Assembly: GCA_963842525.1 (NCBI GenBank)
Contig: CAWJGT010000023.1
Coordinates: forward strand, 320,001-384,000
Source: an uncultured Holophagales bacterium
Lineage (GTDB): Bacteria > Acidobacteriota > Thermoanaerobaculia > Multivoradales > UBA5704
Length of the DNA: 64,000 nucleotides
Direction of reading: 5' to 3'
This document shows, piece by piece, positions 15,897 to 46,550 of the stretch; within the stretch, counting starts at the first letter, position 1; the number at the start of each line of letters is the position of its first letter. The notes beneath the pieces were generated by a model. That model worked only from the letters and a program-made list of their open reading frames with translations. It was not told where the DNA came from and did no database searches. The translations under genes and the position numbers were made by a program.

Positions 15897-15917
15897 GATG
15901 GCTCATTGTAGAGCTTC

Positions 15918-16582
15918 TCAGCCCTGCCCTACTCGCCGTTGCTCCAACTCCCGCCGCAGCCGGGCCAACTCTTCCTCAGCGGCACGGCGTGCCGCAACCG
16001 CCTCCTCATACCGCAGGTACGGCTCGCCGGTCGCGGTGTCTACGACCCGGATCCGCTGCCCTTCCCGCCGGAGCGTCACGCCCGTGGTGCGGCTAATGAG
16101 CGAGCCGTCCGGCTCCGGGGCAACCTCTCGGTAGCGGCCGGATTCGAGCCGGAGGCCCTGGAGCGGCGGATCGAGGTATTCCTCGAAGGGATCAAAGAGG
16201 AAGTACTCCTCCACCCCGAGATCCGCGTAGGTCTTCCTCTTGCGGCCAAGGTCTTCGTCCCGGGTGTTGTCCGAGGTCACCTCGATTACCAGACAGGGCA
16301 CGCGGCCCTCTTCCTTCCAGAGCAGGTAGGTTCTGCGCGGCGGCTCTTTGGCCGCGCACGGCACGACGAAGAGGTCCGGCGCCACGACAGCGCGTGGGTT
16401 GCCCTGCTCGTAATAGAGGAAGAGGTTCCCAGCGACATACACATCCGGCTTCTCCCGAAAACGCTCTCGGAAGGCTTCGAGCAGGTACGTCATCTCCTGG
16501 ACGTGGAGAGCTCGGTTTCCGCCATCGGCTGGCCGTCGGACTCCGGATAGTCGACCGGACGCTGGAGAGGGATCGCGGCCAT
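15918..16582 (-). CDS. Uma2 family endonuclease (frameshift near 16505)
   Basis: Start MAAIPLQRPVDYPESDGQPMAET at 16582, then a frame change into ...APDLFVV...VIEVTS...K...Y..LGVEEYFLFDP. Confidence 0.85.
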
Positions 16583-18559: not shown

Positions 18560-18644
18560 CGGAGGCTCCTCGGGCTCGGAGGGGGAAGACGAAAAAACCG
18601 CACCGGGGGTGGCGCGGCTTCGCAGGCAGAGGCGGAGATCTTCA

Positions 18645-18730
18645 TCGCTTCCCTACGCTGGCATGACCCAGGTCAGGTGATGAGGGTGGTCCCTGAAGGG
18701 ATCTCAGCCTTGCGGCCCCCCTAGCAGGGT
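18645..18730 (-). ncRNA. TPP riboswitch
   Basis: Minus strand reads GGGG..GCTGAGA..ACCC..ACCTGACCTGGGTCATGCCAGCGTAGGGAAG, the THI-box consensus, upstream of thiC. Confidence 0.93.
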
Positions 18731-18732
18731 TC

Positions 18733-18760: not shown

Positions 18761-18866
18761 TGAGGCGCCGGAATCAGCACGGAACCAGCAGGAGCGGGTG
18801 GGTAGCGGTACACTCGTCGTCCGATCGAGGCACCGGCGGGCACCACCCCGTTGCCGGAAGCATTCC

Positions 18867-20120
18867 ATGGCCGAAGAGAGTGAGGAAACGCCGATGAAGG
18901 AGGTCTTCACCGACCCGGGTAGCGAGCTTTCGTTTGCCAGTGCTGGAGACTTGACACGGCAGCTCAGCGAAATGGACTCTTCCGTCCCAAGAAGAACGGA
19001 GGGACGGCGGTCGCATCACCGCGAGAGGTACTGCATCGTGCGCTACCTCACGGCTCTGGCTCGGTCGTCGCTGTTGAAGTTTCCCCTCCGGGTCGAGAAG
19101 TCGGAATCCCCGGACTTTCTTCTCCATCTGTCCGATGGAACTGTCGCTGGGATTGAGGTCACGGAAGCGGGAACAGAACGCTCGCAGCGTGCTGCAACCC
19201 AACTCGAGAAGAGCCCTCCCGGCTCTTTTCTGGAAGACGAAGATAAATTGAGGATGCCCGGTGAAGAGTTGCAAGGGCGGGTTTATGCAGGAAACGAGCC
19301 CGAGATCGAGCTGGCCAAGATCTTCCTCAAGGCAGTTATAGACAAAACCGGGGCGCTGAACCGGGGCCATTATACAGAAGCAGGCCGGTACGAGCTCCTG
19401 ATCTACGACAACAGCCATCTTGCCGTTCTCACCGATCTCGGAGGCCTGGCTCCCTTCTTGAAGCCTGCCTTGAACGAATGGCTCGCGCAAAGCCAGACGG
19501 AGAAAGCTTTCAGTGTGATCTCAGTATTGCGCGATTCTGAGCTGTTGTACGACTGCGCGGGAGCAAGCACTATCTTTGGGGTCGGTGACCTTCCCAACCT
19601 GCGGCTCACTCGTGGCGTCGTAGCCCCCGAGATTATCAAGGCAGCGGGACTGGCCTCCCAGAAGCTCCACGAGGCCAACATCCCCCATGCCCTCGCCGGA
19701 GGTCTTGCCGTGGGCGCCCATGGCTACCCGCGGACGACCGACGATGTGGACTTCCTGGTCGGCGATGAGGCGTTCGAGAAGCATGAGGGCGGCTTCGTGA
19801 CCCTGAAGGTACCCCTGATCGCCATCGGCAACGTCCGGATCGACTTCGTCTCGATCGATGAGTCGAAGGGCGAGGAACGACAGTTGCGTCCTGCAGTAGA
19901 GGAGCCGCCTCAAAGCAACGGAGTTCCGATCGTGCCGCTGCCTGCGCTGGTGTACATGAAGCTCAAGGCAGGAAGACAGAAGGACACCGCAGATCTGGTG
20001 GAGCTTCTGAAGCGTGGCAGAGTCGATCTCGAGGCGATGGATGAGTATCTCGAGGAGTATGCGCCGGAGCAGACCCGGCGCTGGCAAAGGGTCAAGGAAA
20101 TCGCAGCGCGAGAGGAGTAA
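18867..20120 (+). CDS. Fusion of a PD-(D/E)XK-like nuclease domain and an AbiEii/MNT-like nucleotidyltransferase domain
   Basis: N-half ESPDF...GIEVTE; C-half ALAGGLAVGAHGYPRTTDDVDFL and MKLKAGRQKD..DL. Alternative start at 18894. Confidence 0.7.
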   Translation: MAEESEETPMKEVFTDPGSELSFASAGDLTRQLSEMDSSVPRRTEGRRSHHRERYCIVRYLTALARSSLLKFPLRVEKSESPDFLLHLSDGTVAGIEVTEAGTERSQRAATQLEKSPPGSFLEDEDKLRMPGEELQGRVYAGNEPEIELAKIFLKAVIDKTGALNRGHYTEAGRYELLIYDNSHLAVLTDLGGLAPFLKPALNEWLAQSQTEKAFSVISVLRDSELLYDCAGASTIFGVGDLPNLRLTRGVVAPEIIKAAGLASQKLHEANIPHALAGGLAVGAHGYPRTTDDVDFLVGDEAFEKHEGGFVTLKVPLIAIGNVRIDFVSIDESKGEERQLRPAVEEPPQSNGVPIVPLPALVYMKLKAGRQKDTADLVELLKRGRVDLEAMDEYLEEYAPEQTRRWQRVKEIAAREE

Positions 20121-20138: not shown

Positions 20139-20178
20139 TAGCAGGAGTTCATCCTACACCGATCAAGTGGGGAGTCAA
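20139..20178 (-). promoter_or_regulatory. Second copy of the thiC promoter region (direct repeat of 18722-18760)
   Basis: Shares TAGCAGG, GTTCATCCTACACCG (15 bp exact) and GGGAGTCAA; minus strand again TTGACT-N16-TAGGAT. Confidence 0.75.
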
Positions 20179-23100
20179 CGGACGGCAGGGGCAGGCATGG
20201 CGTGCCGGGATGGTGGAAGGAGGGGGCCTTCGTCGAGGCGGCGCCAGGCTTCCTGGATGAGGTCCTCGGGGCGCCAGAGCCAGCGCCGGACAGATGTCCC
20301 GACGATGCCCGCCAGCCATCTTCGGTCGGCCGAGAAGGCGAGGCCGGTCACGGAGGTCCCCGTGCTCGAAGTGGGAGACCTTGCGGCGGAGGACCAGGTC
20401 CCACACCTCGGTGGTCTCGTCCTCGAGAGCCGTGGCCGCGTACCTGCCCTGGGCATCCAGGGCGACACGAATCGGTTTCGCCGAATAGCTCGCAACCCAG
20501 GAGGGACAGGTCCCGCGTAGATTGCAGACCCACTGGGTCCCGTCGCGACGGGCTGCCACCAGGAGATCTCCTCGCGGGCTGAAGGCGTAGTGGCTGACCG
20601 TCGAACGCAGCGCGGCGACGATCGGCCGCGATCCGGCGTTGCGGATCACGACAAAGCCACCGTCAAAAGAGGCGGCGAGATGGCCTTCGTCGGCGCTCCA
20701 GGCGAGGCTGCGCAGCATGCCGCTCAGAGGAACGCGCTCGATCCGGGCCGCCTTCCCCCGCTCCAGGTCCAGGGACCAGATCTCCAGGGAGCGGCCGCGG
20801 TCCGGACCCATCATCGCGAGATACCTTCCCCGCGGGCTCATCTCGCCAGCGAGCATGCGGTGGTCTACCGGGATCTCCACGCGCGGACGCTCCTCGCCCG
20901 TCCTGCGGATTTCGATCCGCTCGCGCCCAAAGACGGCGAACAAGCGCTCCTGCCGGTCGAAGCTCACGTTGACGCTGAGCAGGGACGGTGCTGGGACCCT
21001 TCGCCCCGAAGGGATCTCCAGCATCCAGGAGTGTTCCCCAAAATCGCCTGCGAGGTACGCCCCCGTCGGGCTGAACGCGACATAGCCTTGCAGACCGCCG
21101 GAGAGGCGCTGGTCGAGGACCCGCTGCGCGGTCCGGATCTCCCAGACCTGGACACGATCGAGCATCGCCGCGGCGAAATATCTGCCGTCCTGGCTCATCG
21201 CGACCTTGCTGCCAGCGCTGCGTACCCCCAACGGTATGTCCTGCGGGCTCGGCGTCAGGTCCCAGACGTGGACCGCGTCCCTGCCGATCGTGCCGAAGGC
21301 CGCCAGGGAGTTGCCGTCCGCGCTGAATGCCAGGTCGCTACCGCCCCCTTGCAGGCGTGCGAGCTCCGCCCGGCTCGACAGATCCCAGAGCTGAACCCTG
21401 AACCGGTTCCCCGTCGCCAGCGTCTGGCCGTCGGGGCTGAAGGCGAGCGCCTCCGGCGCCTCGTCTCTCATCGGCAGGCGTGCGAGCTCGTGTTTACCGA
21501 GGACATCCCAGACGACGACCTCGTTGTCGGGCCCCGGACCCCGATCGACCAGGGCCGCGGCGAGGTGGTACGCATCGGGGCTCAGGGCGACGACCTCGAC
21601 GGCCTGGGACCACGTGCTCAGCCCCTTCGTCCGCGCTGTGAAGCGCGCGGTTTCTTTTCCGAGGTCGGTGTCGAAGAGGCGGACCTCCTCCGCTTCCCGG
21701 GTGGAGATCGCGATTGCGATCGAACGGCCGGCCATGGCCTGAGCCCTCTCGCGGCGTTGCTCTGGACGGTCCGTAAGGAGCAGACGGGAGGGTGGCTCCT
21801 GCGCCTCGGCAAGGTTCCAGATCTGGACCTCCCGCGCCTCCCGGTCTACGGCGAGGAATCGATTTCCCCCCGCGCTGAATGTGGCCGTATCTCCTTTGTA
21901 GGAGCCAAGCCTTCGGCAGTGCGGGTCCGGCGTCTCCCAGCCGTCGCAGATCCAGAGGGAGCCGTCGTGCCCAGCCAGCGCGAGGCGCCCTTGATGGAAG
22001 GCCATGGCTCGGCATCCCGTCGCCGTTGGATCGGGCAGGCTTCCGGCCCTGTGCAGCTTGCCGGCCAAGCTCCAGACTTCGATCCCCTGGTCATAGAGGG
22101 CGACGAGCCGTCCGTCCGGGCTGAACGCCATGGCCTTGGCCTCGAGACCCGAGGGAGCCCTGATCTTGGCCCTGAGGGGACGCACCAGTTCCATGCCCTT
22201 GCGGAGGGTGCGGTCGGCCTGGAGAGAGGCTGTTCCCAGGTCGGCGAGCCGGCGTAGCGACTCTGCCGCCAGTCGGACACTCTCATGCAGCGAGTCGAGG
22301 TCCCTGGTGCGGAGTGCTTCGGCGCGATTTGCCAGACCGAAGGCCTCAGCAAGGCGCTGCTGATGGACAGCCTCGACTCGGGCGCGGCCGGCATCGCGCA
22401 AGGCGGAGTCCCGGGCACCGCGGGCAGTTTCAGCCTCTTTCTTGAAGAGTTGGGAGTCCTTTAGTGCCTTCTCCCGTTCGCGACGCGCGTCTTCTGCCCT
22501 CCGCGCGGCGATCTTTGCACCCATCCGGGCCCACTTCTGCTCGAACTCGGTAGCCTCCCGGCGCTCCTCGGCCCCGCGGACCCGGAAAAGGGAATAGAGA
22601 GTTGCGACCACAATGATGGTTACAACCGCTCCGGTCACCCACGCGAGCACCTGACGCAGGCGACGGCTGCGGCTGACGAAGTCCTCGGCGCCGACAACCC
22701 GCTGGACGACCGCGTCTGAGACCACCCCTTCTTTCAGTGCAGAGAGTGGCTCCCTCTCCTCCGTGATTCCGCCGACGAGGTCGCGCCAGACCGCCACCTG
22801 GAGCGCCCCTTCGAAGTCGATGGGGATTGCCTGCCTTTCCAGCGGGTTGAACGCCACAATCTCTTTACGGACGTTCTCCGAGGCCGCCGCCGCGGGACCC
22901 GCAACGACGACGAGCATTGAGCTGTTCCTCGCCTGAGATAGGACCCTCGGAGAGACCGTGGTCCCAGGCGGTGAGCCGAGCCGGTCGTAGTAGCAAACGA
23001 GGCCTTCGCGGGCGAGCCTGCGGACGAGGGCCTCCGGATAGAGGGTTCCGTCTCTTCGACCGTAGGAGACGAAGACATCGTTGCCGAGAAGGAACCGGTA

Positions 23101-23187
23101 TAGTTTCCCATAGAGCTTGCCCATGGCCTCGTGCCAGGGCAGCCAGAGGAACACCCGGCGCAGGGCTCTCCGCAAGATGGCATCCAT
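20175..23187 (-). CDS. TIR - transmembrane - coiled coil - WD40 repeat protein (frameshift near 20360)
   Basis: DVFVSY TIR start and SENVRKEI catalytic-Glu helix; TM WVTGAVVTIIVVATLYSLF; many AFSPDG...VWD repeats; the true C-terminus (WLWRPEDLIQEA) lies in the 20175..20495 frame. Confidence 0.8.
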
Positions 23188-24176: not shown

Positions 24177-26057
24177 ATGTCCAATCGCGCGTGCAGGCTC
24201 GTCTTTTCCCTCAGCTTTCTGTTCCTTCTCGCCCTTCCCCTCACAGCTCAACAGCCCGCCTCTCCCATCCCCCGGGAGTGGCTCACTCCGGCCGAGGTCG
24301 CGGGCTTCGAGGCCACGCCGAGCTATGACGAGACGCTCGCCTTCCTGCGCAAGGTCCAGACCCGCCTGCCCGCGATGTACATCGGCACCTACGGCAGCTC
24401 CGGCGAGCACCGGCCGCTCCCCTTCGTCGTCGTCTCCAAGGACAAGGCCTTCACCGCCGACAAGGCCCGCCAGCTCGGCAAACCGATCGTCATGATCCAG
24501 AACGGCATCCACGCGGGCGAGATCGACGGCAAGGACGCATCCCTGATGATCCTCCGCGACATGGCCCTGGGCCGCCATGAGGAGATTGCGGAGATCCTCA
24601 ATGCCGTGACCCTGGTGATCGTGCCGATCTACAACGTCGACGGCCACGAGAAGGTCTCGCCCTACAACCGGGCAAACCAGGACGGGCCGCGCAAGGGCAT
24701 GGGCTTCCGGACCACCAGCAACGGGCTCGACCTCAACCGCGACTACCTGAAGCTCGCCTCCGAGGAAGCCCGCGCCCTGGTCGGCCTGATCGCGGACTGG
24801 CGCCCCCATCTCTTCGTGGACAACCATGTCACCGACGGGGTCGACCACGACTGGGTGCTGACCTGGTCCTGGGCCGAGGCGCCGCAGAGCCCGGCGCCGG
24901 TGGACGCGTGGATGCGCGCCCATCTGCCCGCCGCGCTCGCCAACACCGAAAAGGCCGGCCACCGCACCGGGCCGTACGTCGACTTGAAGGACCGCAACGA
25001 TCCCGCCAAAGGGTTCAGCTCCTGGGTCGGCGGGCCTCGCTATTCGTCCGGCTACCTGCCGCTCCGCAACCGCGCCGCGGTCCTGGTGGAGACGCACTCG
25101 TACAAACCCTACCGGCAGCGGGTGCTCGCCACGCGCGACTTCCTGGTCACCCTCCTCCTGGAGGCGGCGAACGACCCGCAGAGTCTGCGCAAGGCGGTCG
25201 CCGACGCCGAGGCCGCCACCGTGGCGATGGGACGGCCGGACGCTCCGCCCTCCGAGGTCGCCGTAGCGTACGACGAGAGCGAAACCGCGGACCGCATCCG
25301 CTTCCCCGTCTATGCCTGGGACATGAAGACCTCGGCCGTGACCGGCCAGCCGCTCCTGGTCTACCGCCGCGGCGAGGTCAAGGAGATCGAGGTCCCCTGG
25401 TACCACGCTCCGAAGGTGGCCAAGGCACTCCCCCGCCCGCGAGGCTACCTCGTGCTCCCCGGCTGGCCGCAGATCGAGCAGCGCCTGCAATGGCATGGGC
25501 TTCGATTCGAAAAGCTGACCGCGCCCGCCGAGCTCGAGGTCGAGACGCTGCGCGTGTCGAATCCCGATCCGGCCGATGGTCCCTACCAGGGCCTGACCCA
25601 GGTCTCGGCCCAGGTCGAGCACAGGACCGAGCGCCGGAAGATCCCCGCCGGCGCGCTCTGGGTCCCGGCCGACCAGCCCGACTTCGCCGTCGCCGTGCAC
25701 CTACTGGAGCCCGAGAGCCCCGACTCGCTCTTCGCCTGGGGTCTCCTCTCCACCGTCTTCGAACAGAAGGAGTACATGGACGCGAGGGTCCTGGAAGGGC
25801 ACGTGGCCGAGATGCTGAAGGACCCCAAGGTCGCCGCCGAATGGCAGGTCGCCCTCAAGGACGAGAAGCTCGCCGGCAATCCCTTCGCCCGCTATCGTTG
25901 GTGGTATCTGCGGACGCCGTATTGGGATGAGGCCGTGGGGCTGGTGCCGGTGTTCCGGGTCCTCAGTCCCTGGAATCCTTCAGCCCGGCCGGCGAAAACG
26001 GGACAGCACAAACCCTACGCCACCGGCGAGAAGCAAGACTCCGCCCATCAACCATGA
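24177..26057 (+). CDS. M14 zinc carboxypeptidase family protein, secreted
   Basis: Signal peptide; GIHAGEIDG (HxxE), DLNRD and DNHVT zinc ligand motifs. Confidence 0.9.
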   Translation: MSNRACRLVFSLSFLFLLALPLTAQQPASPIPREWLTPAEVAGFEATPSYDETLAFLRKVQTRLPAMYIGTYGSSGEHRPLPFVVVSKDKAFTADKARQLGKPIVMIQNGIHAGEIDGKDASLMILRDMALGRHEEIAEILNAVTLVIVPIYNVDGHEKVSPYNRANQDGPRKGMGFRTTSNGLDLNRDYLKLASEEARALVGLIADWRPHLFVDNHVTDGVDHDWVLTWSWAEAPQSPAPVDAWMRAHLPAALANTEKAGHRTGPYVDLKDRNDPAKGFSSWVGGPRYSSGYLPLRNRAAVLVETHSYKPYRQRVLATRDFLVTLLLEAANDPQSLRKAVADAEAATVAMGRPDAPPSEVAVAYDESETADRIRFPVYAWDMKTSAVTGQPLLVYRRGEVKEIEVPWYHAPKVAKALPRPRGYLVLPGWPQIEQRLQWHGLRFEKLTAPAELEVETLRVSNPDPADGPYQGLTQVSAQVEHRTERRKIPAGALWVPADQPDFAVAVHLLEPESPDSLFAWGLLSTVFEQKEYMDARVLEGHVAEMLKDPKVAAEWQVALKDEKLAGNPFARYRWWYLRTPYWDEAVGLVPVFRVLSPWNPSARPAKTGQHKPYATGEKQDSAHQP

Positions 26058-26252
26058 AAGCCAGACCAGCAGACCGAAGCCGAGGGAGTTGCCTCCCTCC
26101 GGGCCGAAGGTGCGATCCAGCAAGAGCGGGACCGGACCTCCGATCATCAGGAGAACGCCGAGCACAAGCAGGGTCCAACTCGCGCCCCTGACGATCTTCG
26201 GGGTTTCGCCTTCCGGCGGGCTCGCCTCTTGATCGCTGTCGCTCGTGCTCAT
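25980..26252 (-). CDS. Small two-TM membrane protein
   Basis: 90 aa from ATG at 26252; two hydrophobic helices and a basic tail. Confidence 0.6.
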   Translation of the reverse strand: MSTSDSDQEASPPEGETPKIVRGASWTLLVLGVLLMIGGPVPLLLDRTFGPEGGNSLGFGLLVWLSWLMGGVLLLAGGVGFVLSRFRRPG

Positions 26253-26339
26253 GGTGGTACAGGGGTGCAGTATAGACTCCCCCGCCAATGACGATCTGCG
26301 TCCTCGGCGCTTGGACCGGCGGCCGTCTTCTCTCACCTC

Positions 26340-27716
26340 ATGCCACGAAAAAAACTGCTCAGCCGGTTGGCCGCCCTGGATCCCCTGATTCCTGAAGCCT
26401 GCCTGACGCTGCTCTGGACCTGCTTCGAGGAGGTTGGGCTTTCCGCCGTGGAAAACGCCATGCGATCGAGGAGGATTCATCCCATACGGCTCGAAGCACA
26501 CCGCCCATCTGGGAGATCCATTCGCGATCTCCTGTCCGCCGGCGTCGAGGATCTGCGGGCCGCCGGTAACGCGGAGGACTTCGACCTGCTTGCCCTACGC
26601 TGGCTGAAATGGCTTGATATCTGGCTGGGGGAGGGAGAACTCGAGGACTTCGAGAGTGACAGATTTACAGGGCTCGACGGAAGGCTCTATGCCGTACGGC
26701 GCCGTAACGCCTTCCTCGCCTCCCACTACGAGGGATCAGGGGTCGCCGTTCGATGGAGCGCACATCAGGGCCTCTCCCTTGCGGCTTATTGCCGCAACTT
26801 CGTCGTCGTCCCCTGCGAGCCAGTGCACGGGCTACGCATCGTGCCGCGCGCTGCAGCCCGCTGGGGTACACCCTATCTGCACGACCGGCTTCGGATGGAG
26901 AGCGAGGATCTGCGGATCATGCTCTGGCCCCTCCGAACGGCTCTGGACTACCCCTCTCTCGCCGCTCTCCAGAGCTCTCCTCCGCCGACGTTCCTCAGCT
27001 TCGATCAGATCCGGAACGAGCCCGAACTCCAGGATGAGGTGCTGCAAGCGCTCACCATTGCCCGCCACGAGAGAGCGACGGTTCTCGTCTTTCCCGAGCT
27101 CGCGATTCCCCCGACCACGGAGCAAGGGATCCGACGCACCCTGGCCGGCCACGGCGTGGACGGCCACCCCATTCTCACCCTTTTCGGATGCTGCCACCGC
27201 CCGAACAGCCGGGGGGATCTTGACCTGAACGAGGCGGTTCTCCTCGGGTCGGACGGCTCCGAGCTCCACCGGCACCGCAAGCTCGCTCCGTTCACCGACT
27301 ACTCTTTCGGAGAGGAACACCCTTGTGGAGAAAGGCTGGAGCTCGGAACGGACGTGACCGTCCTGGAATCGGCACTCGGCAACCTCACACCGCTGATCTG
27401 CCTCGATCTGCTGAATGGGAGCGTCGCCGAGGCCCTCTACCGGAGTCACGCGAACCTCTTCGCCGTCCCTTCCCTCAGCCAAGAGACCAGGGCCCACCGG
27501 AGCGCCGCAAAGCGGCTCCAGGTGAGCCTTCAGGCTAGCACCTTCGTCTGCAACCGGTGGGTTGCCGCCCTTTCGGAGGAGCGCACGAGCTTCTTCCAGA
27601 TCCCGCGCCAGCAAGGTCTCGTCTGTCACCTCCCCGATCGCAGCGACAAGCCATACCTCCTCTTCGATCTTTCCGAGAGCCCAGGGGTGGACAAGTCAAC
27701 AATCCGGCAAGTATGA
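26340..27716 (+). CDS. Carbon-nitrogen hydrolase (nitrilase-fold) protein with long N-terminal extension
   Basis: E-K-C triad in VLVFPEL, HRKLAPF and PLICLD. Confidence 0.8.
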   Translation: MPRKKLLSRLAALDPLIPEACLTLLWTCFEEVGLSAVENAMRSRRIHPIRLEAHRPSGRSIRDLLSAGVEDLRAAGNAEDFDLLALRWLKWLDIWLGEGELEDFESDRFTGLDGRLYAVRRRNAFLASHYEGSGVAVRWSAHQGLSLAAYCRNFVVVPCEPVHGLRIVPRAAARWGTPYLHDRLRMESEDLRIMLWPLRTALDYPSLAALQSSPPPTFLSFDQIRNEPELQDEVLQALTIARHERATVLVFPELAIPPTTEQGIRRTLAGHGVDGHPILTLFGCCHRPNSRGDLDLNEAVLLGSDGSELHRHRKLAPFTDYSFGEEHPCGERLELGTDVTVLESALGNLTPLICLDLLNGSVAEALYRSHANLFAVPSLSQETRAHRSAAKRLQVSLQASTFVCNRWVAALSEERTSFFQIPRQQGLVCHLPDRSDKPYLLFDLSESPGVDKSTIRQV

Positions 27717-27733
27717 TGTCACCTGGTTGAGAG

Positions 27734-28705
27734 ATGATTGTCATGCTAGCAAGCCCGCCCATTCTCCTCGCGCTTTCGGTCTTCCGGGATGCTCCGCCCT
27801 CCGAGGTGGCGGACCTGCTCGAAAGAGCGGCTACCGAGCCGCAGGAGGAGGCGCTCTCGGCTCTTTCGGCTCTGCTGATGAACCGGACGCTGCGTCTGTT
27901 GCGCCAGGGATCGCGGCAGGAGATCCTCGAAGAGTCCTTGATGCTCAACCGCTTCCTGGCGATAGACGCCGGAGACCGGTTGCGGCGAGCTCGCCTCGAT
28001 GTGTCCAGCCGCTGGGCCGCTCTGGGAGAGCTCCTCTCGGGGGCCGCGCGCTCAACGAGCCGGGCGGCGGTCCCCTCGATCCTGAAGAGCACGCGGGGGC
28101 GCGGTCAGGAAATCCTGGAGCTGCTGGCCGGCGAGGGGCGTCCAGTCCCCCGGTCGGAGGTCAAGCGGCGCCTCGGCCTCGCGGAATCCCACCTCTCGCA
28201 CCTTCTCCGCGACTTGGAGGGAGCCAACCTTGTCGTCCGCTATCGCCCAGAGGGTGGAAAAGAGGTCCTAGTGGCCCTCGGCCCGGCCGGAGAGGAAGTG
28301 GTCGACGAGTCGGTATTGCCACCCTGGATCGAGAGGTTGGCAGAGGCTCTCGCCGCGGTCTCCCGCGGCGTTCGGATCGACGGAGAGGAACTCGCCCGAA
28401 GCCTGCACGACTCGGGCGCCCCATCCCGGCTCGCAGCCGGCAGGCTGGCCGAGGCGTTGGGGAAGCTGAGCCTCCCTTCCGAAGCTCCCGCCACCGGTTA
28501 TGCCGCAGCAGAGGACACAGATTCACCAGCTTCCGAGGCTGGGCAACGTCGCGAGGCTGCTCGCCGGACAACAGAGCGGGTAAAGGAAACGAACCCGCAC
28601 TTTGCCAACGTGCTGACCTTTCAGCGCGAACGGCGACCCGGCGCTCTCTTCTCCGCACCCGAGCCTGATGCGGGGCCGCGCTCGGCCGGTGCCGACGGCC
28701 GATGA
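27734..28705 (+). CDS. Winged helix-turn-helix (MarR-like) domain protein
   Basis: EILELL...RSEVKRRLGLAESHLSHLLRDLEGANLVVR...GKEVLVAL is a wHTH pattern; helical flanks. Confidence 0.75.
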   Translation: MIVMLASPPILLALSVFRDAPPSEVADLLERAATEPQEEALSALSALLMNRTLRLLRQGSRQEILEESLMLNRFLAIDAGDRLRRARLDVSSRWAALGELLSGAARSTSRAAVPSILKSTRGRGQEILELLAGEGRPVPRSEVKRRLGLAESHLSHLLRDLEGANLVVRYRPEGGKEVLVALGPAGEEVVDESVLPPWIERLAEALAAVSRGVRIDGEELARSLHDSGAPSRLAAGRLAEALGKLSLPSEAPATGYAAAEDTDSPASEAGQRREAARRTTERVKETNPHFANVLTFQRERRPGALFSAPEPDAGPRSAGADGR

Positions 28706-31700
28706 TCGTCACCTTCTATTCGTTCAAGGGCGGAGTCGGACGCAGCTCAGCTCTCGTCGAGGTCGCAGCACAGCTTGCCGCGCAAGGGCGGTCGGTCGTC
28801 GTCTGGGATCTGGACCTCGAAGCCCCGGGCCTCCAGAAAATGCCCGACCTCCAGTCGCTCGACCAGCGGCTCGAGATCGGTAGCCTCGACCTGCTCCTGG
28901 AATTTCAGAAGAACAACTACACCCTTCCCAGGGAAGGCGCTCTCCGTCGGGCCGTGATCGACCTTCCTCTCTACGGCCGGCTGGCGAAAGCGCAGGGGAG
29001 GCTCTCCTTCTTGCTTCCCGCCCGGCTCGACGACGGGTATGCAGCCAAGTTCAGCCAGGTGGACTGGGCGGCTCTCTTCGAACCGGAGGGAGCGGGCCCG
29101 GCGTTCTTTCACAGTCTCGCCGGCTCTCTCCTTCAAGAGCTGGGCTACGAGATCGTCCTCGTCGATTCGCGGACCGGTTATACCGACCTCGGAGCGGTCT
29201 GCACCTTACAGCTCCCCGACCTCGTGGTGCTCGTCTTCAACTTCAACGAGCAGAACCTCGCAGGCATCGAACGCGTCCATCTGGCCGTCACTCAGACCCC
29301 GGCGCGCCATTCGGGGACCATCCCGGTCTTCCTCCTGGCGAACATGCTCCCGGACCGGCCCCGCGAGCTGTACGCTCGGAAGAAGGAGGCCCTCGCCGCC
29401 AAGGGGCTCCGTCCGCACGCCGAAGTGATCCTCCGGCCCGAGCTTCTCCTGAGCGATCGAGTACCGACTCTGGCGGGGATGGACGAGGCCGCAGCGGCTC
29501 TGCGGCCCGTCGTCGAGGAGATCGAGAGTCGGATGCGCGAGCTCGAGGCCACGGCGGAGGCCGAGGCCCGCAGCCGGCTGAGCCGCGCAAAGTCGAGAGG
29601 CGACGAAGAGGAGCTCGAAACTTTGCGCCGGCGCGGCATCTACGAGAAGGCCAAGACTTTCGAGGACAAGGTCGCGGAGCTCTTCGCCCTGCTCGGCTAC
29701 CGCACGACGGTCGACTATAAGCGGGACGACCTCCAGCTCGACATCCGCCTGGAGGCGTCGTTCGGGTCCCTGCCGATCCATGCCCTCGTGGAGTGCAAGG
29801 ACACCGAACGGCCGGTCACGCAACAACAGGTCCGGGACTTTGCCTCCAAGGTGGAGTACGTGAGCCGGGTCGACAAGCGGCCGTATCAAGCCATCCTGGT
29901 CGCCCGCTCGGCCTTTGCAAATAACGCCCATACGGTGGCTGAGAACTTGCACGTTAACCTCCAGACCTTTCAGCATCTCCTCCTCTCTCTCGTCGATCTC
30001 CGTCCGAATCTGGAGGCGGCGACCCGAGCTTTCCAGGGAACACCCTTGGAGCGGCTCTACGTCGAGCAGAGCGTAGTGCTGGAGGCGGACATCCGGCCCG
30101 GCGAGGATCTCCACCCGCGTGGGCTCACCGACACGGTCCTCCAGTGGCTCGATCAGCCGGGAGACACTTTCCTAACTCTGCTCGGCGACTTCGGGTGCGG
30201 CAAGACGAGCTTCTGCAAGAGGCTTGCATGCGAGTTGGCCCAGCAGGCCAAGGAACGGCCGGACCAGGTCCGGACACCGGTGCTCATCGATCTGCGGGAA
30301 GGAGGCTCGACGACGGTCACGCTGGAAAACCTCCTCACCTATCACTTCCAGCGCCTCTCTTCGCAGCCGTTCAACCCCCAGGCCCTGCTCCACCTGAACC
30401 GGGAGGGCTACCTCCTCCTGATCTTCGACGGTTTCGACGAGACGATCGCCTATTCGGAACCGGGCCGCTATGTCGAGAACCTGCGGCAGATCCTGCGCGC
30501 CGCCGAGGGGAAGGCGAAGGTTCTTCTCACCTGCCGCACCCACTATTTCCGAGACCGCCCGGAGGCGCTGCGGCGCCTGGGCAAGGCGCCGGAGATTCCG
30601 ACGACGACCGGGGCGACCCGGCTTTACGAGGAAATCCAGGAGCGACCCGGCGCCGAGGTCGGCTATGTCCTTGAATTCGGTGAGGAACAGGTCCGGGAAT
30701 ACCTGCGTAAAGCCCTTCCGCCGCCAGCGGACCCGGAGGCGTTTCGCGAGCAGATCCGGCGTAGATACAACCTGGAAGACCTCGCCCAGCGTCCGGTCCT
30801 CTTGGAGATGATTGTCAAGACGCTGCCGCGGCTCACCGCCTTTGGCAATGGTGAGGTCTCGATTGCGGATCTCTATGAAGCCTATTGCGAGGGATGGTTC
30901 CAGCATACTGACTTCCGTCTCACCCTGACGCGGGAGCGCAAGGTGGCCTTGGTGGAGTACCTGGCGCGCTTGATCTGGGACTCCCCCGAGAACCGCGTCC
31001 ACTACGAGGTGCTGTCCGAGAAAGCGGCCGAGTTCTTCAAGGACCGTCCCTTCACGGTCTTCGAGCGGGAGCGTGTGGACTACGAGGTGCGCACGGCCCT
31101 CTTCCTCCGCCGCGACGCCGAGGGCCACTACTCTTTCATTCACCGCTCATTCCTCGAATTCTTCATCGCTCGCACTCTGCGGGCCGGGCTCGTAGCAGGG
31201 AATCCGGGCTGCCTGGACCTGCGCCGGCTGACGCGAGAGGTGGTCTTCTTTCTGGAGCTCTGGGCGGAGGCACAAAGGATTCCTGACCTCAGTTGCAAGG
31301 TGTTGGAGCAGGATTACCGGCCCCGGATCTCCGAAAACGCGCTTCTCCTGCTCTACCTCCACGCCCGGGCATCTCTGGGGCCGCTCCTTGGCACGGGTGC
31401 GGAAGGGGATGACGGGCAAGCAGACCTGGGAAGGGTGCGGGAGGTATTTCAGCGGACACGTCCAAGAGCTCTTCGGCTCGAAGGAGCGGACCTCGAAGGA
31501 GTGATGCTGGCCGGGGCGGATTTGAGCGGGGCCTCGCTCATCGCGGCCCGGCTGGCCGGGGCGGACTTGCGGGAGGCCTCTCTCGACGGTGCCTGCCTCG
31601 CGAGAGCATTCCTCTCTTCCGCCGACCTAAGGCGTGCTTCGGCATTGAACGCGGATTTCAGTGAAGCCAATCTGGATCACGTGGATGCCCAAGAGGCGAT

Positions 31701-33888
31701 CCTCCAAAGGGCAAACCTCCATGGAGCGAATCTCTGCTTCGCCCGGTTCACTCGGGCGAATTTACTGGAATCCGACTTGGGCGATGTCCTTGCAGATGGG
31801 GCTGGATTCCTCAAGTCCGAGATGTCCCCAGGTTGGGAGCTGTCTTCCACAACCGGTGCGATCGAGCCGCGCGTCTTGGAGCTTCGCGCCCAGGTTGGAC
31901 ATTCCTCTAAGGTTACTCGCCTAGCCTGGATGCCCGGAGGTAGAATTATCGCTTCCACATCTCTTGATGGCGCAATCCTTCTCTTAGATGCCGTTTCGGG
32001 CCGTTTGCTCCAGACGCTGGAGGGCCATCCAGGTGGAGCGCTGTCAGTCGCCTGGGCGCCAAACGGAACACGACTGGCTTCCGGTGGTCGTGACCAAATG
32101 CTTCGGCTGTGGCGTCCGGGCCACCACCAACCTGAGCTCGTCCTACAACACAATCAGGGCGATGTTTACGCGGTCGCATGGTCTCCAGATGGGAAGTTAT
32201 TGGCTGGCGCTTCTGATAAAGTCCGAGGTTGGGATTCAGAGAGTGGCCAGTTGATCTTTGAGTTTGGAAAGAATGCAGGAGCAGCCGCGTGGTCTCCCGA
32301 CGGCCAGCAACTTGCCGTCAGTACCAATGACCACATCATCCTTTGGAATCTAGCAGCAAGGCAGTCCGTCCTATCCTTCCATGCTCACCAGAAGCCTATC
32401 ACTGCTCTTTCATGGTCTCCCGACGGTCGGTTATTAGCATCTGCCTCCCTCGACGATACAGCCGGGCTCTGGAATACAGTAGATGGCACGCTCATCCAAT
32501 CCCTTGCCCATCGGAGCTGGGTCTTGGATGTTTCTTGGGATTCCAGAGGTGGGCAACTCGCCTCGGCCTCGGACGATCAAAGAATCCGAATCTGGGATTC
32601 AGTCACAGGAAAGCTCATCCAATCTTTTGCGGGTCATGGATCTGCCTTCCATGCTGTGTCCTGGTCTCCAGAAGGAGGGCGGCTTGCGGCAGGCTCCGAC
32701 GATGGCCAGATTGAGATCTGGGACGTCGAGGCCGGTCTTTCTGTTCTCGTATCGCAGAGCTCTCGGACTTCCGCTCACATGATATCTTGGGACCACAATG
32801 CTGCACGCCTTGCCTCCTCCTCGGCAGATGGAATTCGGATCTGGGACTCTCGAAGCGGAAAAGTAATACTCAGCCGACAAGAACCAGCAGGTTATTATTT
32901 TTGGATACCGGATGGAGAGAAACTACTCGCTATCGACTTGCTTTATGGAGAAGTCAGGATCTGTGATATAAGCGAAAGAGAAGACGTGATTCTCAGGTCT
33001 TCGCGAAAAGGAAGCTATAAGCCCCCGTTCGTCGCCTTCTCTTTATCTCCTGACCATCATTGGTTAGCATATGGCGATTTCCAAGGCCTTATGTATGTCG
33101 GCAAAACCGCGGACCATGCTAGTCTGCGATCTATAAAAAAACACAATAGTTGGGTCCACGCTATCGCTTGGTCCCCTGATGCAAATCTTATAGCTTCCGC
33201 CGCTTCTGAGCCTACCATCCAGATCTGGGAACCCAGTTCCGGGAGAAGCATTCATACACTCTTGGGGCATGAGGATATGATTGGGGTTCTTGCCTGGGCC
33301 TCAAATGGAGCCTTGCTTGCTTCTGCTTCAACAGATGCAACAGTCCGGCTCTGGGAGCCCGTCTCCGGGCAGTGTCTCGCAACCCTGGAAGGTCACCTGA
33401 GCGCTGTTGTAGCCCTCTCGTGGGCATCCGACAACGGCCGGCTCGCGTCCGCTTCCGTCGATGGGACAGTCCGTCTTTGGGAGCCGAGTTCCGGTTCACC
33501 TCTCCATACCCTCGACGTCCCCGCGCCCATTGACCTGGAATGGTCCCCCGACGGAACGCGAATAGCGGTCACATCAAATCGTGGGTTTATAGAGCTATGG
33601 AACGTCGCCACCGACCCACCTCGCCCTCTCGGCCGGCTCTATCAGACCCCGGACGGCACCGGCTTTGCCGCCACGCCGGACGGCTACGTTTCCGGCCCGC
33701 CGGAGGCGCTCGAATGGGTGCGCTGGGGTGACGGGTGGGCACTCTATGATCTGACGGATGTGCCAGATCGGCTGTCGCCCGAGCGGGTCGCAGCAGCACT
33801 TCGGGGTGAAGGCCTTCCGACAGGTAGGCGAAGACGAGGGGCTGTCCCTACGAAAGCGTCCCGGCGGCGGCCAAAGCCAGGGGGCTGA
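28702..33888 (+). CDS. ParA/MinD-like (KGGVGR) ATPase - Mrr-like REase - NACHT NTPase - pentapeptide - WD40 protein
   Basis: FYSFKGGVGRS, DLDLEAPG and DSRTG; FEDKVAELF...DI...VECK; Walker A GDFGCGKT and Walker B LIFDGFDE; A(D/N)Lxx pentapeptides; more than 10 WD40 repeats. Confidence 0.88.
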   Translation: MIVTFYSFKGGVGRSSALVEVAAQLAAQGRSVVVWDLDLEAPGLQKMPDLQSLDQRLEIGSLDLLLEFQKNNYTLPREGALRRAVIDLPLYGRLAKAQGRLSFLLPARLDDGYAAKFSQVDWAALFEPEGAGPAFFHSLAGSLLQELGYEIVLVDSRTGYTDLGAVCTLQLPDLVVLVFNFNEQNLAGIERVHLAVTQTPARHSGTIPVFLLANMLPDRPRELYARKKEALAAKGLRPHAEVILRPELLLSDRVPTLAGMDEAAAALRPVVEEIESRMRELEATAEAEARSRLSRAKSRGDEEELETLRRRGIYEKAKTFEDKVAELFALLGYRTTVDYKRDDLQLDIRLEASFGSLPIHALVECKDTERPVTQQQVRDFASKVEYVSRVDKRPYQAILVARSAFANNAHTVAENLHVNLQTFQHLLLSLVDLRPNLEAATRAFQGTPLERLYVEQSVVLEADIRPGEDLHPRGLTDTVLQWLDQPGDTFLTLLGDFGCGKTSFCKRLACELAQQAKERPDQVRTPVLIDLREGGSTTVTLENLLTYHFQRLSSQPFNPQALLHLNREGYLLLIFDGFDETIAYSEPGRYVENLRQILRAAEGKAKVLLTCRTHYFRDRPEALRRLGKAPEIPTTTGATRLYEEIQERPGAEVGYVLEFGEEQVREYLRKALPPPADPEAFREQIRRRYNLEDLAQRPVLLEMIVKTLPRLTAFGNGEVSIADLYEAYCEGWFQHTDFRLTLTRERKVALVEYLARLIWDSPENRVHYEVLSEKAAEFFKDRPFTVFERERVDYEVRTALFLRRDAEGHYSFIHRSFLEFFIARTLRAGLVAGNPGCLDLRRLTREVVFFLELWAEAQRIPDLSCKVLEQDYRPRISENALLLLYLHARASLGPLLGTGAEGDDGQADLGRVREVFQRTRPRALRLEGADLEGVMLAGADLSGASLIAARLAGADLREASLDGACLARAFLSSADLRRASALNADFSEANLDHVDAQEAILQRANLHGANLCFARFTRANLLESDLGDVLADGAGFLKSEMSPGWELSSTTGAIEPRVLELRAQVGHSSKVTRLAWMPGGRIIASTSLDGAILLLDAVSGRLLQTLEGHPGGALSVAWAPNGTRLASGGRDQMLRLWRPGHHQPELVLQHNQGDVYAVAWSPDGKLLAGASDKVRGWDSESGQLIFEFGKNAGAAAWSPDGQQLAVSTNDHIILWNLAARQSVLSFHAHQKPITALSWSPDGRLLASASLDDTAGLWNTVDGTLIQSLAHRSWVLDVSWDSRGGQLASASDDQRIRIWDSVTGKLIQSFAGHGSAFHAVSWSPEGGRLAAGSDDGQIEIWDVEAGLSVLVSQSSRTSAHMISWDHNAARLASSSADGIRIWDSRSGKVILSRQEPAGYYFWIPDGEKLLAIDLLYGEVRICDISEREDVILRSSRKGSYKPPFVAFSLSPDHHWLAYGDFQGLMYVGKTADHASLRSIKKHNSWVHAIAWSPDANLIASAASEPTIQIWEPSSGRSIHTLLGHEDMIGVLAWASNGALLASASTDATVRLWEPVSGQCLATLEGHLSAVVALSWASDNGRLASASVDGTVRLWEPSSGSPLHTLDVPAPIDLEWSPDGTRIAVTSNRGFIELWNVATDPPRPLGRLYQTPDGTGFAATPDGYVSGPPEALEWVRWGDGWALYDLTDVPDRLSPERVAAALRGEGLPTGRRRRGAVPTKASRRRPKPGG

Positions 33889-34082
33889 GCCAGGTTTCCG
33901 CCGTCCACGCCCAACCCATAGACAAGCGGCCCCCGATCCCCCTGTGGCGGACTGCATCGGGAAAGCTGCCGACTGTGGCGGGAGTCTCGTTGCCGCCGCT
34001 CCCCGCCCTGAGGCTCGCGGTCGGTTTCGCATCGACCCCGAGCCTCGTCTCGCCGACCCAGGCCGGCAGCTCATTGACCGTG

Positions 34083-34545
34083 ATCAAGGTCTCGCTGCTC
34101 GTGATCTGAGCCTTTCTGCCCGCAGCCAGCGGCTTTCGACTCCCTGACAAAGCAACGCTGACACGTGTCGACGTCCCGGTGACAGCAGCCAGCGGCTGGC
34201 TGACCCAAGCCAGGGCCTCTCTGCTCCCGAGGCGGCTCTCTCTGCTCGCGGTCAGCGGCTGTCGGCTCCCTGTCAGAGTCACGTTGACACGGGTCAACGT
34301 CCCATGGATCGCAGCCAGCGGCTCTCTGATCCGGGTCAGAGCCTCTCTGCTCCCGAGGCGGCTCTCTCTGCCCGCGGTCAGCGGCTTTCTGGTCCCTGGC
34401 AGAGCCACGCTGACACGGGTCAACGTCCCATGGATCGCTGCCAGCGCCTCACTGACCCAGGTCAGGATCTCTCTCCTTGCGGTCAATGACTGCCTGATTG
34501 GGGTCAAGAACTTCCGGAAGAGCGCCGGCTCTGCCAGGACCGCGG
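34083..34545. repeat. Degenerate 21-bp-period array with a 126-bp higher-order repeat
   Basis: G(T/C)CA-like anchors at 34125, 34146, 34167, 34188, 34209, 34251, 34272, 34293, 34314, 34335, 34377, 34398, 34419, 34440, 34461, 34482 and 34503. Confidence 0.85.
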
Positions 34546-34707
34546 CCGCCAGCGTCCTCGTCCAAGTCTGAAAACGCTATTCCCGCCGGTCTGCCGCGGG
34601 ATTCGGTGGCAAACGTGTCGCTGGTTCTCGCTGTCAAATAAAAACCAACTGGTGGAATGTGTCGGCCAGATCTCCGAGCGTGATCTCGAGTTGATCTTCG
34701 TCGCGGA

Positions 34708-34944
34708 TCACCACTCGACGCGCCGGAGCACGCTCCGTGCCGTTTCGGTCACGAAGCGATCCTCGGGCTCTGCGATCGAATCCCAGACTTCGTTCAGACG
34801 CTCAGTGATCGTATCCGGGTTGTGGCGGGCGAGGTATTCGACCAGTGCATTGGTGTAGAGCTGGCTCCTGGTCGTCTCCAGACGTTCGGCCACTCGCTCA
34901 GCTTCCTGGAAGATGTGGTCCGGAACAGAAATCGCAGTCTTCAT
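34708..34944 (-). CDS. Ribbon-helix-helix antitoxin (ChpI/MazE-like)
   Basis: MKTAISVPD.IF..AE..A......RSQLY..AL.EYL signature; 78 aa ending in EW. Confidence 0.85.
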   Translation of the reverse strand: MKTAISVPDHIFQEAERVAERLETTRSQLYTNALVEYLARHNPDTITERLNEVWDSIAEPEDRFVTETARSVLRRVEW

Positions 34945-35180
34945 ACTCGGAGCATAAGCCATCTCGGCGCTCCCAGGGCACCCCCGCCCGGCGCAAAAGT
35001 TGGCGCCTATGGGGGACGGGGCTGAGGGCCTACGGCCAGCCATCGAGGTGTCGCCTGTCAGGCCCCATCCCGCTTCAGCTTGTGCGGCGTACAGCGCCCC
35101 TCCGGGCCATGGTACGACGGCCCGGAGGGGTTGGGTTTCAGCCCTGCTGCGATGGCCGGACGCGGGTCGATCGCTCTTCC

Positions 35181-38399
<3,219 letters not shown>

Positions 38400-46363: not shown

Positions 46364-46367
46364 AGTC

Positions 46368-46550
46368 CTAATCGCAACAAGCAATGGTCCCCGGAAAGCT
46401 GCAGTCGCAGGTGGCGTAGGCTTGAGTCCAGCCTGGACAAGTATAGCGGCCCTGGGTGGGAGCTGCCCCAACCACTTCCTGCAGATTGCGCTCGGACAGG
46501 TTGCGCAGGGTCTCTCGGTGGAGCTGGAGCTTCTTGACGTTCTTGTTCAT
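46368..46550 (-). CDS. Lanthipeptide precursor LanA1 (60 aa)
   Basis: MNKNVKKLQLHRETLRNL leader; core with 5 Cys and 6 Ser/Thr; AAGGAG RBS; directly upstream of lanC. Confidence 0.85.
   Translation of the reverse strand: MNKNVKKLQLHRETLRNLSERNLQEVVGAAPTQGRYTCPGWTQAYATCDCSFPGTIACCD

Follow-up and report, generated by a model that had tools for sequence, protein, structure and literature searches.

A candidate NLR-like conflict cassette that joins a nitrilase, a winged-helix protein and a KGGVGR-Mrr-NACHT receptor

The window analyzed here, a stretch of 64,000 nucleotides from an uncultured Holophagales bacterium (assembly GCA_963842525.1, contig CAWJGT010000023.1, positions 320,001 to 384,000), contains three consecutive genes that encode a nitrilase-superfamily hydrolase (gene 1), a winged helix-turn-helix (wHTH) protein (gene 2) and a large fusion of KGGVGR, Mrr, NACHT, pentapeptide and WD40 domains (gene 3). 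With moderate confidence, we read this trio as a conserved three-gene conflict cassette of Acidobacteriota-type soil bacteria, most likely antiphage or acting by abortive infection; in terms of known families, it is most likely an undescribed variant of the NLR-like (bNACHT) conflict systems that combines a nuclease arm with a nitrilase module. The conserved catalytic motifs, the fast-evolving sensor, the patchy distribution of rare genes, the conflict-gene neighbors and the nitrilase effector of DRT1 support this reading. Bacterial NLR-like receptors have mostly been described as single proteins, and a conserved operon would show how such a receptor is regulated and wired to extra effectors: here it bears a ParA-like domain for docking, into which a DNA-binding partner is predicted to fit, and this partner is always accompanied by a nitrilase.

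Conservation of the cassette

The genes and their domains are the following (positions in the window, residues of each protein):
26340..27716, plus strand: gene 1, 458 amino acids, N-terminal domain followed by a nitrilase-superfamily hydrolase (Pfam, alignment, AlphaFold2 model)
26340-26906, plus strand: family-specific N-terminal domain of gene 1, residues 1 to about 189
Within gene 1: nitrilase-superfamily hydrolase, residues about 190-449, catalytic E253, K314 and C354
27734..28705, plus strand: gene 2, 323 amino acids (Pfam, fold, alignment)
Within gene 2: helical N-terminal domain (22-119), MarR-like winged helix (123-186; positions 28100-28291), helical C-terminal domain (184-245) and a C-terminal tail
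28547..28654, plus strand: residues 272-307 of the gene 2 tail, predicted contact with the KGGVGR domain (complex model and tail distribution)
28702..33888, plus strand: gene 3, 1728 amino acids, KGGVGR-Mrr-NACHT-pentapeptide-WD40 fusion
28702..29361, plus strand: KGGVGR-variant ParA/MinD-like domain of gene 3, residues 1 to about 220, with K9 kept and R14 in place of the Walker A lysine
29650..29982, plus strand: Mrr-type PD-(D/E)xK nuclease domain, residues about 317-427, with D347, E364 and K366
30175..30579, plus strand: NACHT NTPase core, residues about 492-626, with Walker A GCGKT (K501) and Walker B DGFDE
31459..31821, plus strand: pentapeptide repeats, residues about 920-1040 (Pfam Pentapeptide, E-value 6.2e-22)
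31888..33621, plus strand: WD40 beta-propeller region, residues about 1063-1640 (WD40, E-value 1.3e-82, nine stretches)

A preliminary description of the locus, made from the sequence alone, had reported three co-oriented, tightly coupled genes, and both coordinates and junctions are exactly as it claimed. The stop codon TGA of gene 1 (27714-27716) is separated from the ATG of gene 2 (27734) by a gap of 17 nucleotides, as read directly from the junction, and the ATGA at 28702-28705 is common to the stop of gene 2 and the start of gene 3. The small open reading frame (ORF) upstream of gene 1 is divergent, so that gene 1 is the first gene of the unit. Every domain that the description named is present in the three proteins.

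Pattern scans seeded with the nitrilase alignment yielded 12 loci from species genomes and 21 from metagenomes; as all were gathered through the nitrilase, the counts that follow do not give the frequency of solitary gene 3. They leave out L020-L023 (E-value 1e-4 or worse, at most 180 amino acids, nitrilase domain only) as well as L031, L042, L045 and L046, which are fragmentary or have no downstream DNA. In all 25 loci with downstream DNA the gene directly after the nitrilase encodes a wHTH homologue, and gene 1 was never found without gene 2 among the loci examined. The full KGGVGR-Mrr-NACHT-pentapeptide-WD40 gene comes third in 13 of the 23 loci that show a third gene (12/19 when near-identical loci are counted once). 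The trio, first described from this one stretch, does therefore co-occur elsewhere: nitrilase, wHTH and gene 3 follow one another in the same order in 13 other loci, a recurrence across genomes, with proteins 33-62% identical, that is far from what chance would produce. The ATGA overlap between genes 2 and 3 is found in the window and in six other loci, and gaps of 6-27 nucleotides in four more; in the other three loci with gene 3 the junction is ambiguous because our longest-ORF rule over-extended the start of gene 3. Among the 13 loci some copies of gene 3 run off their contig, and tblastn detected no Mrr domain in L019. Two copies look damaged, with an apparent frameshift within NACHT in L012 (14338-14343) and a protein cut to 922 amino acids in L028 (4414-7182); these are either decaying copies or assembly errors.

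Where the full gene 3 is missing, the third position is occupied by an MFS transporter (L015), asparagine-metabolism genes (L036), a small DSP-type phosphatase (L037/38), DUF6265 and cytochromes (L040/41/44), a gene 3 without its first half (L034), or a 514-amino-acid protein with a canonical KGGVGKS ParA-like domain (L033). L026, whose nitrilase is the closest relative of the one in the window, has a 419-amino-acid ORF with a weak Peptidase_C25 match, followed by a remnant of gene 3 (its last 50 or so codons, 84% identical; 12291-13740), which reads as an in-place swap of the third gene. The third genes of L026 and L033 gave no informative sequence match in the PDB. In a maximum-likelihood tree of the nitrilase, loci with gene 3 sit on all deep branches, the deepest being L019, whose genome is marked as unpublished, and those lacking gene 3 fall into five or more distinct groups. 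The tree thus suggests that the cassette had gene 3 from the start and lost it several times.

The preliminary description had cast the nitrilase and the wHTH protein as regulators or a second arm of the NACHT protein. That they form a conserved, coupled unit with it holds, but the pair is the more constant part, and its persistence in at least five lineages that lack gene 3 makes it more than a NACHT accessory. Because of this survival on its own, the pair is probably a regulated effector unit in its own right, or a module of the toxin-antitoxin-like type, to which gene 3 would contribute sensing and a nuclease arm. In the metagenome locus L030 we noticed by eye, immediately upstream of the cassette, a tRNA-like sequence (9820-9900), which may mark an integration site.

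The three proteins and the predicted docking contact

By its sequence, gene 1 is a nitrilase-superfamily hydrolase with intact catalytic residues. Pfam CN_hydrolase matches residues 232-407 (E-value 5.6e-9, 36.2 bits against a cut-off of 23.2), and the E-K-C triad, claimed to be intact from the outset, is invariant at E253, K314 and C354 in 33/33 aligned family members. The AlphaFold2 model (pLDDT 92.3) matches 24 nitrilase-superfamily representatives over residues 185-449 or so, with Z scores of 15.7-20.8, the next unrelated fold being at Z 7. The best of them is yeast Nit2 (4h5u, Z 20.8, root-mean-square deviation 3.2 over 227 residues), and the nearest folds are metabolic Nit2, amidases and carbamoylases. 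An additional N-terminal domain had also been announced; it is indeed present, with a size of about 190 residues and not about 200. This domain has no Pfam match, and its 60 matches among 1.84 billion cluster representatives, never fused to other effector types, are nearly all proteins of 420-500 amino acids or fragments, so that it appears private to the family and never swapped to another effector. The family itself is tiny (92 clusters among 5.8 billion) and patchy: among 401 sampled genomes of the phylum the nitrilase was found in one, the window's own, which has no second copy, and the search of plasmids returned no match (the phage collection was not searched).

Gene 2 is, again by sequence, a MarR-like winged-helix protein translationally coupled to gene 3. 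The central wHTH previously proposed is recovered at residues 123-186 by HTH_27 (E-value 3.3e-6, 27.7 bits against a cut-off of 22.2), the MarR and MarR_2 models remaining below their own cut-offs. The fold of residues 111-195 matches wHTH domains of the MarR/ArsR/TubR type (Z 10-12.5), and the alignment profile matches OhrR and MarR structures at an E-value of 2e-5. MarR-type wHTH proteins have a dimeric fold of about 150 amino acids; with 323, gene 2 is twice that size, owing to two extra conserved helical domains of unmatched fold and a C-terminal tail modeled with low confidence. Foldseek returned nothing at an E-value of 0.001 or better for the protein, and the ESM Atlas generic wHTH clusters only.

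Gene 3 reads as a STAND protein of the NLR-like kind, in which a WD40/pentapeptide sensor is combined with an intact NACHT switch and an Mrr-type nuclease. The NLR-like order attributed to it, that is, an effector, an NTPase and a C-terminal repeat sensor, is what we find (Mrr_cat at 317-427, NACHT at 492-626, pentapeptide repeats at 920-1040 and WD40 at 1063-1640), followed by a conserved C-terminal piece that runs from the WD40 region to 33888. The Mrr-like nuclease and the WD40 region of the preliminary description are thus both there, the former with a Pfam Mrr_cat E-value of 3e-11; the model of the inactive form, NA-iREase1, reaches 9.6e-5 on this domain and stays under its cut-off. The D..ExK motif is intact in about 31 of 36 homologues of gene 3 (broken in P0113, P0116, P0119, P0123 and P0130). 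NACHT (PF05729) matches with an E-value of 6.7e-11 and 42.7 bits against a cut-off of 26.7, and its Walker A GxGK[ST] and Walker B DG[FL]DE are present in 36/36 homologues. The WD40 region is the least conserved among orthologues, at 34-38% identity versus 57-80% for Mrr and NACHT, so the sensor part is, on these alignments, the fastest to evolve; it contains no tandem or near-identical DNA repeats, and therefore no sign of hypervariability through repeat shuffling. The window's genome has no close paralogue of the Mrr-NACHT part, and it is the only one of the 401 sampled genomes with the Mrr-NACHT form of a KGGVGR protein. In precomputed Pfam lists, P0139 and P0140 have Mrr-NACHT-pentapeptide fused to condensation and AMP-binding domains of the nonribosomal peptide synthetase type, instead of WD40 or KGGVGR.

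Two different P-loop NTPases had been seen in gene 3. Both P-loops exist, but the first is a Walker A variant. NCBIfam NF047398, the 'KGGVGR-motif variant AAA ATPase', covers residues 2-192 with 140.5 bits against a cut-off of 90, and the ParA/MinD equivalog models score far below their own cut-offs. The canonical deviant Walker A of ParA and MinD is KGGxGK[ST], P-loop lysine included. Gene 3 departs from it: in its KGGVGR motif (residues 9-14) K9 is present and the P-loop lysine is R14, an arginine that all 36 homologues share (KGGVGR[ST], 36/36), as they do the DxRTG motif (36/36). With lysine replaced by arginine, this is a variant ParA-like domain that may not hydrolyze ATP, and not a second ordinary NTPase.

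What, then, would be the role of this domain? We read it as the place where the C-terminal tail of the wHTH protein would dock, a contact supported by modeling and comparative data. Complex modeling had been suggested as a check, and in our model of KGGVGR residues 1-300 (13-row alignment) with the wHTH protein (17-row alignment) the tail is predicted on the KGGVGR domain with an ipSAE of 0.70, the best of three controls reaching 0.00. At least 79% of contacts are common to three runs, and the partner's pLDDT is at least 71. In calibration, the ipSAE mark was reached by 58/80 solved complexes and 2/110 mismatched pairs, counts that hold only roughly here because we used our own alignments. The modeled interface places tail residues 272-307 on KGGVGR residues 72-75, 124-141, 160-170 and 191-202. 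Independently of the model, a tail of at least 30 amino acids is found in 13/14 loci with gene 3 versus 2/11 without it. The two exceptions are L026, with its remnant of gene 3 and recent replacement, and L033, in which the third gene is ParA-like.

The company that gene 3 keeps is informative too. Using the shared 'longest contig' figure of protein searches as a heuristic fingerprint of a common contig, on related sequences, 16/35 homologues bearing KGGVGR share a contig with a nitrilase or wHTH match, versus 0/13 close homologues that start at Mrr and have no KGGVGR (Fisher p 0.002); with contigs of at least 15 kb only, the figures are 10/19 and 0/10. Also, we compared the pairwise-identity matrices of the three proteins over 13 loci with 2000 permutations, and they are correlated in all pairs: r 0.89 for nitrilase and KGGVGR (0/2000 permutations reach it), 0.64 for nitrilase and wHTH (2/2000) and 0.56 for wHTH and KGGVGR (4/2000). 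These correlations fit inheritance as one block, although shared host ancestry would produce some as well.

This evidence has to be set against the idea that the three genes are chance neighbors, in which a solo bNACHT-type defense protein would happen to lie beside an ordinary amidase or nitrilase with its MarR-type regulator, catabolic or detoxifying. In favor of such an accident, the pair occurs without gene 3 in at least five lineages, beside housekeeping genes such as those for an MFS transporter, an asparaginase or cytochromes; MarR-type regulators commonly adjoin the enzymes they control, as textbooks describe; the folds closest to gene 1 are metabolic; and bNACHT proteins usually act alone. 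We nonetheless find it quite improbable. Chance neighbors would hardly keep the ATGA coupling in seven loci, nor a tail that is predicted to dock with clean controls and is confined to loci in which a KGGVGR- or ParA-like gene comes next, nor would the pair be missing from all 13 KGGVGR-less homologues. A family as tiny and patchy as this nitrilase is unlike a metabolic enzyme, and the wHTH protein is twice the size of MarR, with two extra conserved domains.

KGGVGR proteins, related systems and a possible mechanism

The KGGVGR domain also heads STAND proteins with varied effectors (TIR, FGE-sulfatase, CHAT, patatin) and NTPases (NB-ARC, nSTAND1), among them the actinobacterial 'FxSxx-COOH system tetratricopeptide repeat protein', and a KGGVGR protein is found in 14/401 sampled genomes of the phylum, the window's own included. 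Both the Mrr-NACHT form and the nitrilase are absent from the other 400. It had been proposed that the nitrilase and wHTH genes might accompany KGGVGR fusions with variable C-termini, and this expectation failed: their profiles found nothing beside 18 other KGGVGR genes, and the pair accompanies one architecture of gene 3 only, plus the canonical ParA-like gene of L033. Directly upstream of those 18 genes lie an Xre/MqsA-like helix-turn-helix (HTH) gene of about 185-195 amino acids in seven cases and a TIR gene in five, the other six having no recognised upstream partner. Annotation gives the same order on a Rhizobium phaseoli and a Massilia plasmid, where a 'type II TA system antitoxin MqsA family protein' precedes a 'ParA family protein'. 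By eye, the MqsA-like HTH partners end in a tail of some 50 residues with aromatic residues, loosely like the tail of gene 2. As a broader rule, therefore, KGGVGR proteins appear to come with an upstream partner, often an HTH protein.

Other KGGVGR loci deserve mention in their own right. In the window's genome, L024 (C1:747242-752094) encodes a KGGVGR-nSTAND1-TPR-S protein of 1195 amino acids, whose start overlaps the end of an upstream 422-amino-acid TIR protein, and L025 (C24:64743-67271) an 842-amino-acid KGGVGR protein with no further Pfam domain; forms like the latter, of about 800-900 amino acids, also exist in the genomes that hold L012, L016 and L017. Elsewhere there is a widespread two-gene module in which an MqsA/Xre-like HTH gene (about 167-195 amino acids) lies directly upstream of a KGGVGR 'ParA family' protein of about 620-750 amino acids, on Acidobacteriota chromosomes (L059-L062, L065, L066, L071) and on the plasmids of Rhizobium and Massilia (L081, L082).

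The pairing of the wHTH protein with the KGGVGR domain, as modeled, resembles these HTH partners placed before other KGGVGR proteins and, more loosely, the ParB and MinE peptides on ParA and MinD. In ParA-ParB and MinD-MinE a deviant Walker A fold is contacted by a short terminal peptide of the partner, as predicted for the tail of gene 2, and ParB is an HTH DNA-binding protein; the genes of each pair are adjacent and co-transcribed. The differences are that here the P-loop lysine is an arginine, the domain is fused to an immune-type receptor, the peptide is at the C-terminus of the partner, and there is no partition or division context. It is possible, if doubtful, that an HTH protein with a tail peptide and a KGGVGR ParA-like domain constitute a general and undescribed control module, in which a DNA-bound partner, acting through the ParA-like domain, restrains STAND, TIR or nuclease effectors until activation sets them free, the adaptor licensing a private nitrilase as well in our cassette. 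The cassette would then be a receptor of the NLR type whose two effector arms differ in chemistry, one cleaving DNA and the other hydrolyzing C-N bonds. The HTH or TIR genes that precede KGGVGR proteins, both in Acidobacteriota and on plasmids of proteobacteria, suggest a larger unexplored family of two-part systems.

The same partners lend themselves to a purely regulatory view of genes 1 and 2, as a toxin-antitoxin-like or regulatory module linked to gene 3 by control only. The wHTH protein would silence the NACHT-nuclease through the KGGVGR domain, and the nitrilase, no killing effector, would make or destroy the small ligand of the MarR-like protein. The MqsA-family annotation of HTH partners in the same position fits, as does the predicted contact between tail and KGGVGR domain, and the strict pairing of nitrilase and wHTH protein is what one would see for an enzyme with a ligand-sensing partner, MarR-family proteins being textbook responders to small ligands. 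No operator was found upstream in 22 loci, however, and no ligand was identified; the private 190-residue domain and the strict triad of the nitrilase fit an effector equally well, and in DRT1, the sole defense case studied, the nitrilase is the effector. We place this view on the unlikely side.

As for systems already described, no PADLOC system covers the trio as a whole, in keeping with the initial impression that the combination is not a named system. No nitrilase-wHTH-NACHT operon is described in the literature searched, though supplementary tables may list one, and the word 'nitrilase' is absent from the main text of Kaur et al. 2020, Kaur et al. 2021, the Kibby et al. preprint and a 2026 survey of STAND proteins. 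The nearest relatives of gene 3 are the bNACHT (Kibby et al., 10.1101/2022.07.19.500537) and Avs proteins (10.64898/2026.01.04.697583), which likewise have an N-terminal nuclease effector, a central NACHT and, as a sensor, repeats at the C-terminus; the bNACHT sensor types that Kibby et al. list include both pentapeptide and beta-propeller. Their effector is activated by ligand-driven oligomerization, and the same would be expected of gene 3. Gene 3 differs in its additional N-terminal KGGVGR ParA-like domain and in its conserved operon with a nitrilase and a wHTH gene, bNACHTs being described as rarely in operons. No Avs or AVAST model is among the six PADLOC matches of gene 3 at E-values up to 0.1, in a library without the newer Avs families. 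AVAST models themselves are presumably contained in PADLOC 2.0.0.

The other candidates share single domains with the cassette. PDC-M28, a computational candidate of PADLOC made of A and B, is matched in its B models (PDLC04559, E-value 4.2e-27; the other, 3.2e-16) only over residues 3-218 of the 1728 of gene 3, and these models also match the other KGGVGR proteins examined; PDC-M28A (PDLC04558) matches neither gene 1 nor gene 2, nor anything in the whole 9.95-Mb genome, nor any of the seven chromosomal MqsA-like HTH partners scanned. With B matching on the KGGVGR domain only, and A absent from the genome, the trio is not PDC-M28. The KGGVGR/ParA-like STAND and TIR proteins of Kaur et al. 2020 (PMC7159879) have the same N-terminal domain before a variable effector, a STAND NTPase and a repeat sensor, the effector and NTPase being Mrr and NACHT in our case. 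An upstream partner gene is frequent among KGGVGR proteins, as here, but in our cassette this partner is a MarR-like wHTH protein that always comes with a nitrilase. Finally, DRT1 and the UG RT-nitrilase (reverse transcriptase-nitrilase) systems have, like gene 1, an intact nitrilase-superfamily domain in a defense context. In DRT1 (PMC13275509), the one studied defense nitrilase, that domain is the effector, needs oligomeric assembly and has an unknown substrate. The best PADLOC match of gene 1 is 'RTasNitrilase', a weak one (E-value 1e-4, 19.5 bits), no better than its likeness to the general Pfam family (36.2 bits). Genes 1-3 and their neighbors match no reverse transcriptase family, and the RT-nitrilase models of PADLOC match the nitrilase part only, and weakly; lacking a reverse transcriptase, the cassette is not a DRT. 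The nitrilase of gene 1 differs further in having its own 190-residue N-terminal domain and a wHTH partner.

If the cassette is the conflict system that we favor, it could work as follows. In the resting state the wHTH protein would restrain the system, possibly by repressing the operon, by tethering gene 3 or silencing it via its KGGVGR domain, and by controlling the nitrilase; it would be a repressor or antitoxin-like brake and, at the same time, an adaptor to the nitrilase. A ligand bound by the WD40/pentapeptide part would drive oligomerization of NACHT and so gather the Mrr domains for DNA cleavage. This oligomerization could also alter the contact with the wHTH protein, so that the nitrilase acts as a second effector; its target might be an essential metabolite or protein bearing an amide or a nitrile, and its activity would depend on oligomerization, as is usual in the superfamily. 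To our knowledge, nitrilases in defense come only from RT-nitrilase systems. A second, independent nitrilase module would offer another route to the question of their substrate.

The trigger of such a mechanism need not be a virus. The cassette could instead serve programmed cell death, kin discrimination or stress signaling in a bacterium with a large genome and complex development, with WD40 sensing an endogenous or bacterial cue. It would then be one of the NTP-dependent conflict systems that Kaur et al. 2020 (PMC7159879) describe; their paper ties such STAND systems, including those with inactive MinD/ParA-like domains, to multicellular or complex bacteria. The genome, at 9.95 Mb, is compatible with this; no phage link turned up, the phage collection not having been searched, and WD40-NACHT proteins act in fungal incompatibility as well. 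A non-viral role seems hardly probable to us, since a nuclease effector, a fast-evolving sensor, an island with AbiE, TIR and CHAT genes and a patchy spread make up the layout of the antiphage STAND proteins proven so far. It would differ from an antiphage cassette mainly in the trigger, not in the mechanism.

A number of observations weigh against a three-gene antiphage cassette. On at least five occasions gene 3 disappeared, was truncated or gave way to another gene while the pair stayed (L015, L026, L033, L016/L034 and the clade of L036, L037/38 and L040/41/44), and the genome of L015, of unknown completeness, has no KGGVGR protein above the cut-off; having persisted through these losses, the pair does not need gene 3. 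Conversely, 19 of the 35 KGGVGR-bearing homologues have no fingerprint match, including the closest, P0096, which lies on a 684-kb contig, so gene 3 may also exist alone. With the Mrr motif broken in 5/36 homologues, nuclease activity is not universally kept. With arginine in place of the Walker A lysine, the KGGVGR domain may not use ATP, and Kaur et al. 2020 (PMC7159879) predict that the MinD/ParA-like domains of such systems are inactive. Structures are available in which partner peptides are bound to ParA or MinD, and the score of our complex could therefore partly reflect likeness to them. No palindromic operator is common to the regions upstream of gene 1 in the 22 loci. Lastly, the related loci are kin, and the Fisher and permutation figures consequently overstate the support.

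Genomic setting

Promoter and terminator scans of 25800-35300 gave counts not above those of shuffled sequence. Among the sequencing runs listed for this DNA there is none of RNA, and small shares of it are present in just two DNA runs, both from soil metagenomes. In the 22 upstream regions, -10-like AT-rich hexamers lie 25-70 nucleotides before the start of gene 1, and are candidates only. Conflict-type genes (PIN-PhoH, CHAT, Uma2, AbiEii-like and TIR-WD40) are found at about 12-34 kb of the window:
12124-13503, plus strand: PIN-PhoH fusion
13534-15066, minus strand: CHAT-domain protease-like gene, whose start overlaps the stop of the next ORF by 4 nucleotides
15063-15896, minus strand: ORF of 277 amino acids
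15918-16493, minus strand: Uma2 endonuclease-like gene
18798-20120: AbiEii-like ORF

The genes at 12124-16493, together with the AbiEii-like ORF, make the region look like a defense island. Some 3 kb upstream of the cassette, a 1012-amino-acid protein with an N-terminal TIR domain and WD40 propellers (20149-23187, minus strand) would be a second NLR-like or TIR conflict gene. A thiamine pyrophosphate (TPP) riboswitch lies among the conflict genes (18633-18732, minus strand; 65.9 bits against an Rfam gathering score of 54.3) and presumably controls the minus-strand ORF downstream of it. Downstream of the cassette come hydrogenase maturation genes, and also a PD-(D/E)XK family transposase-like gene (42008-42994) and a LanC-like gene (45026-46471). 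The G+C content falls to 0.578 at 32001-34000, in the part that codes for WD40, versus about 0.63-0.72 in most other 2-kb bins of the window.

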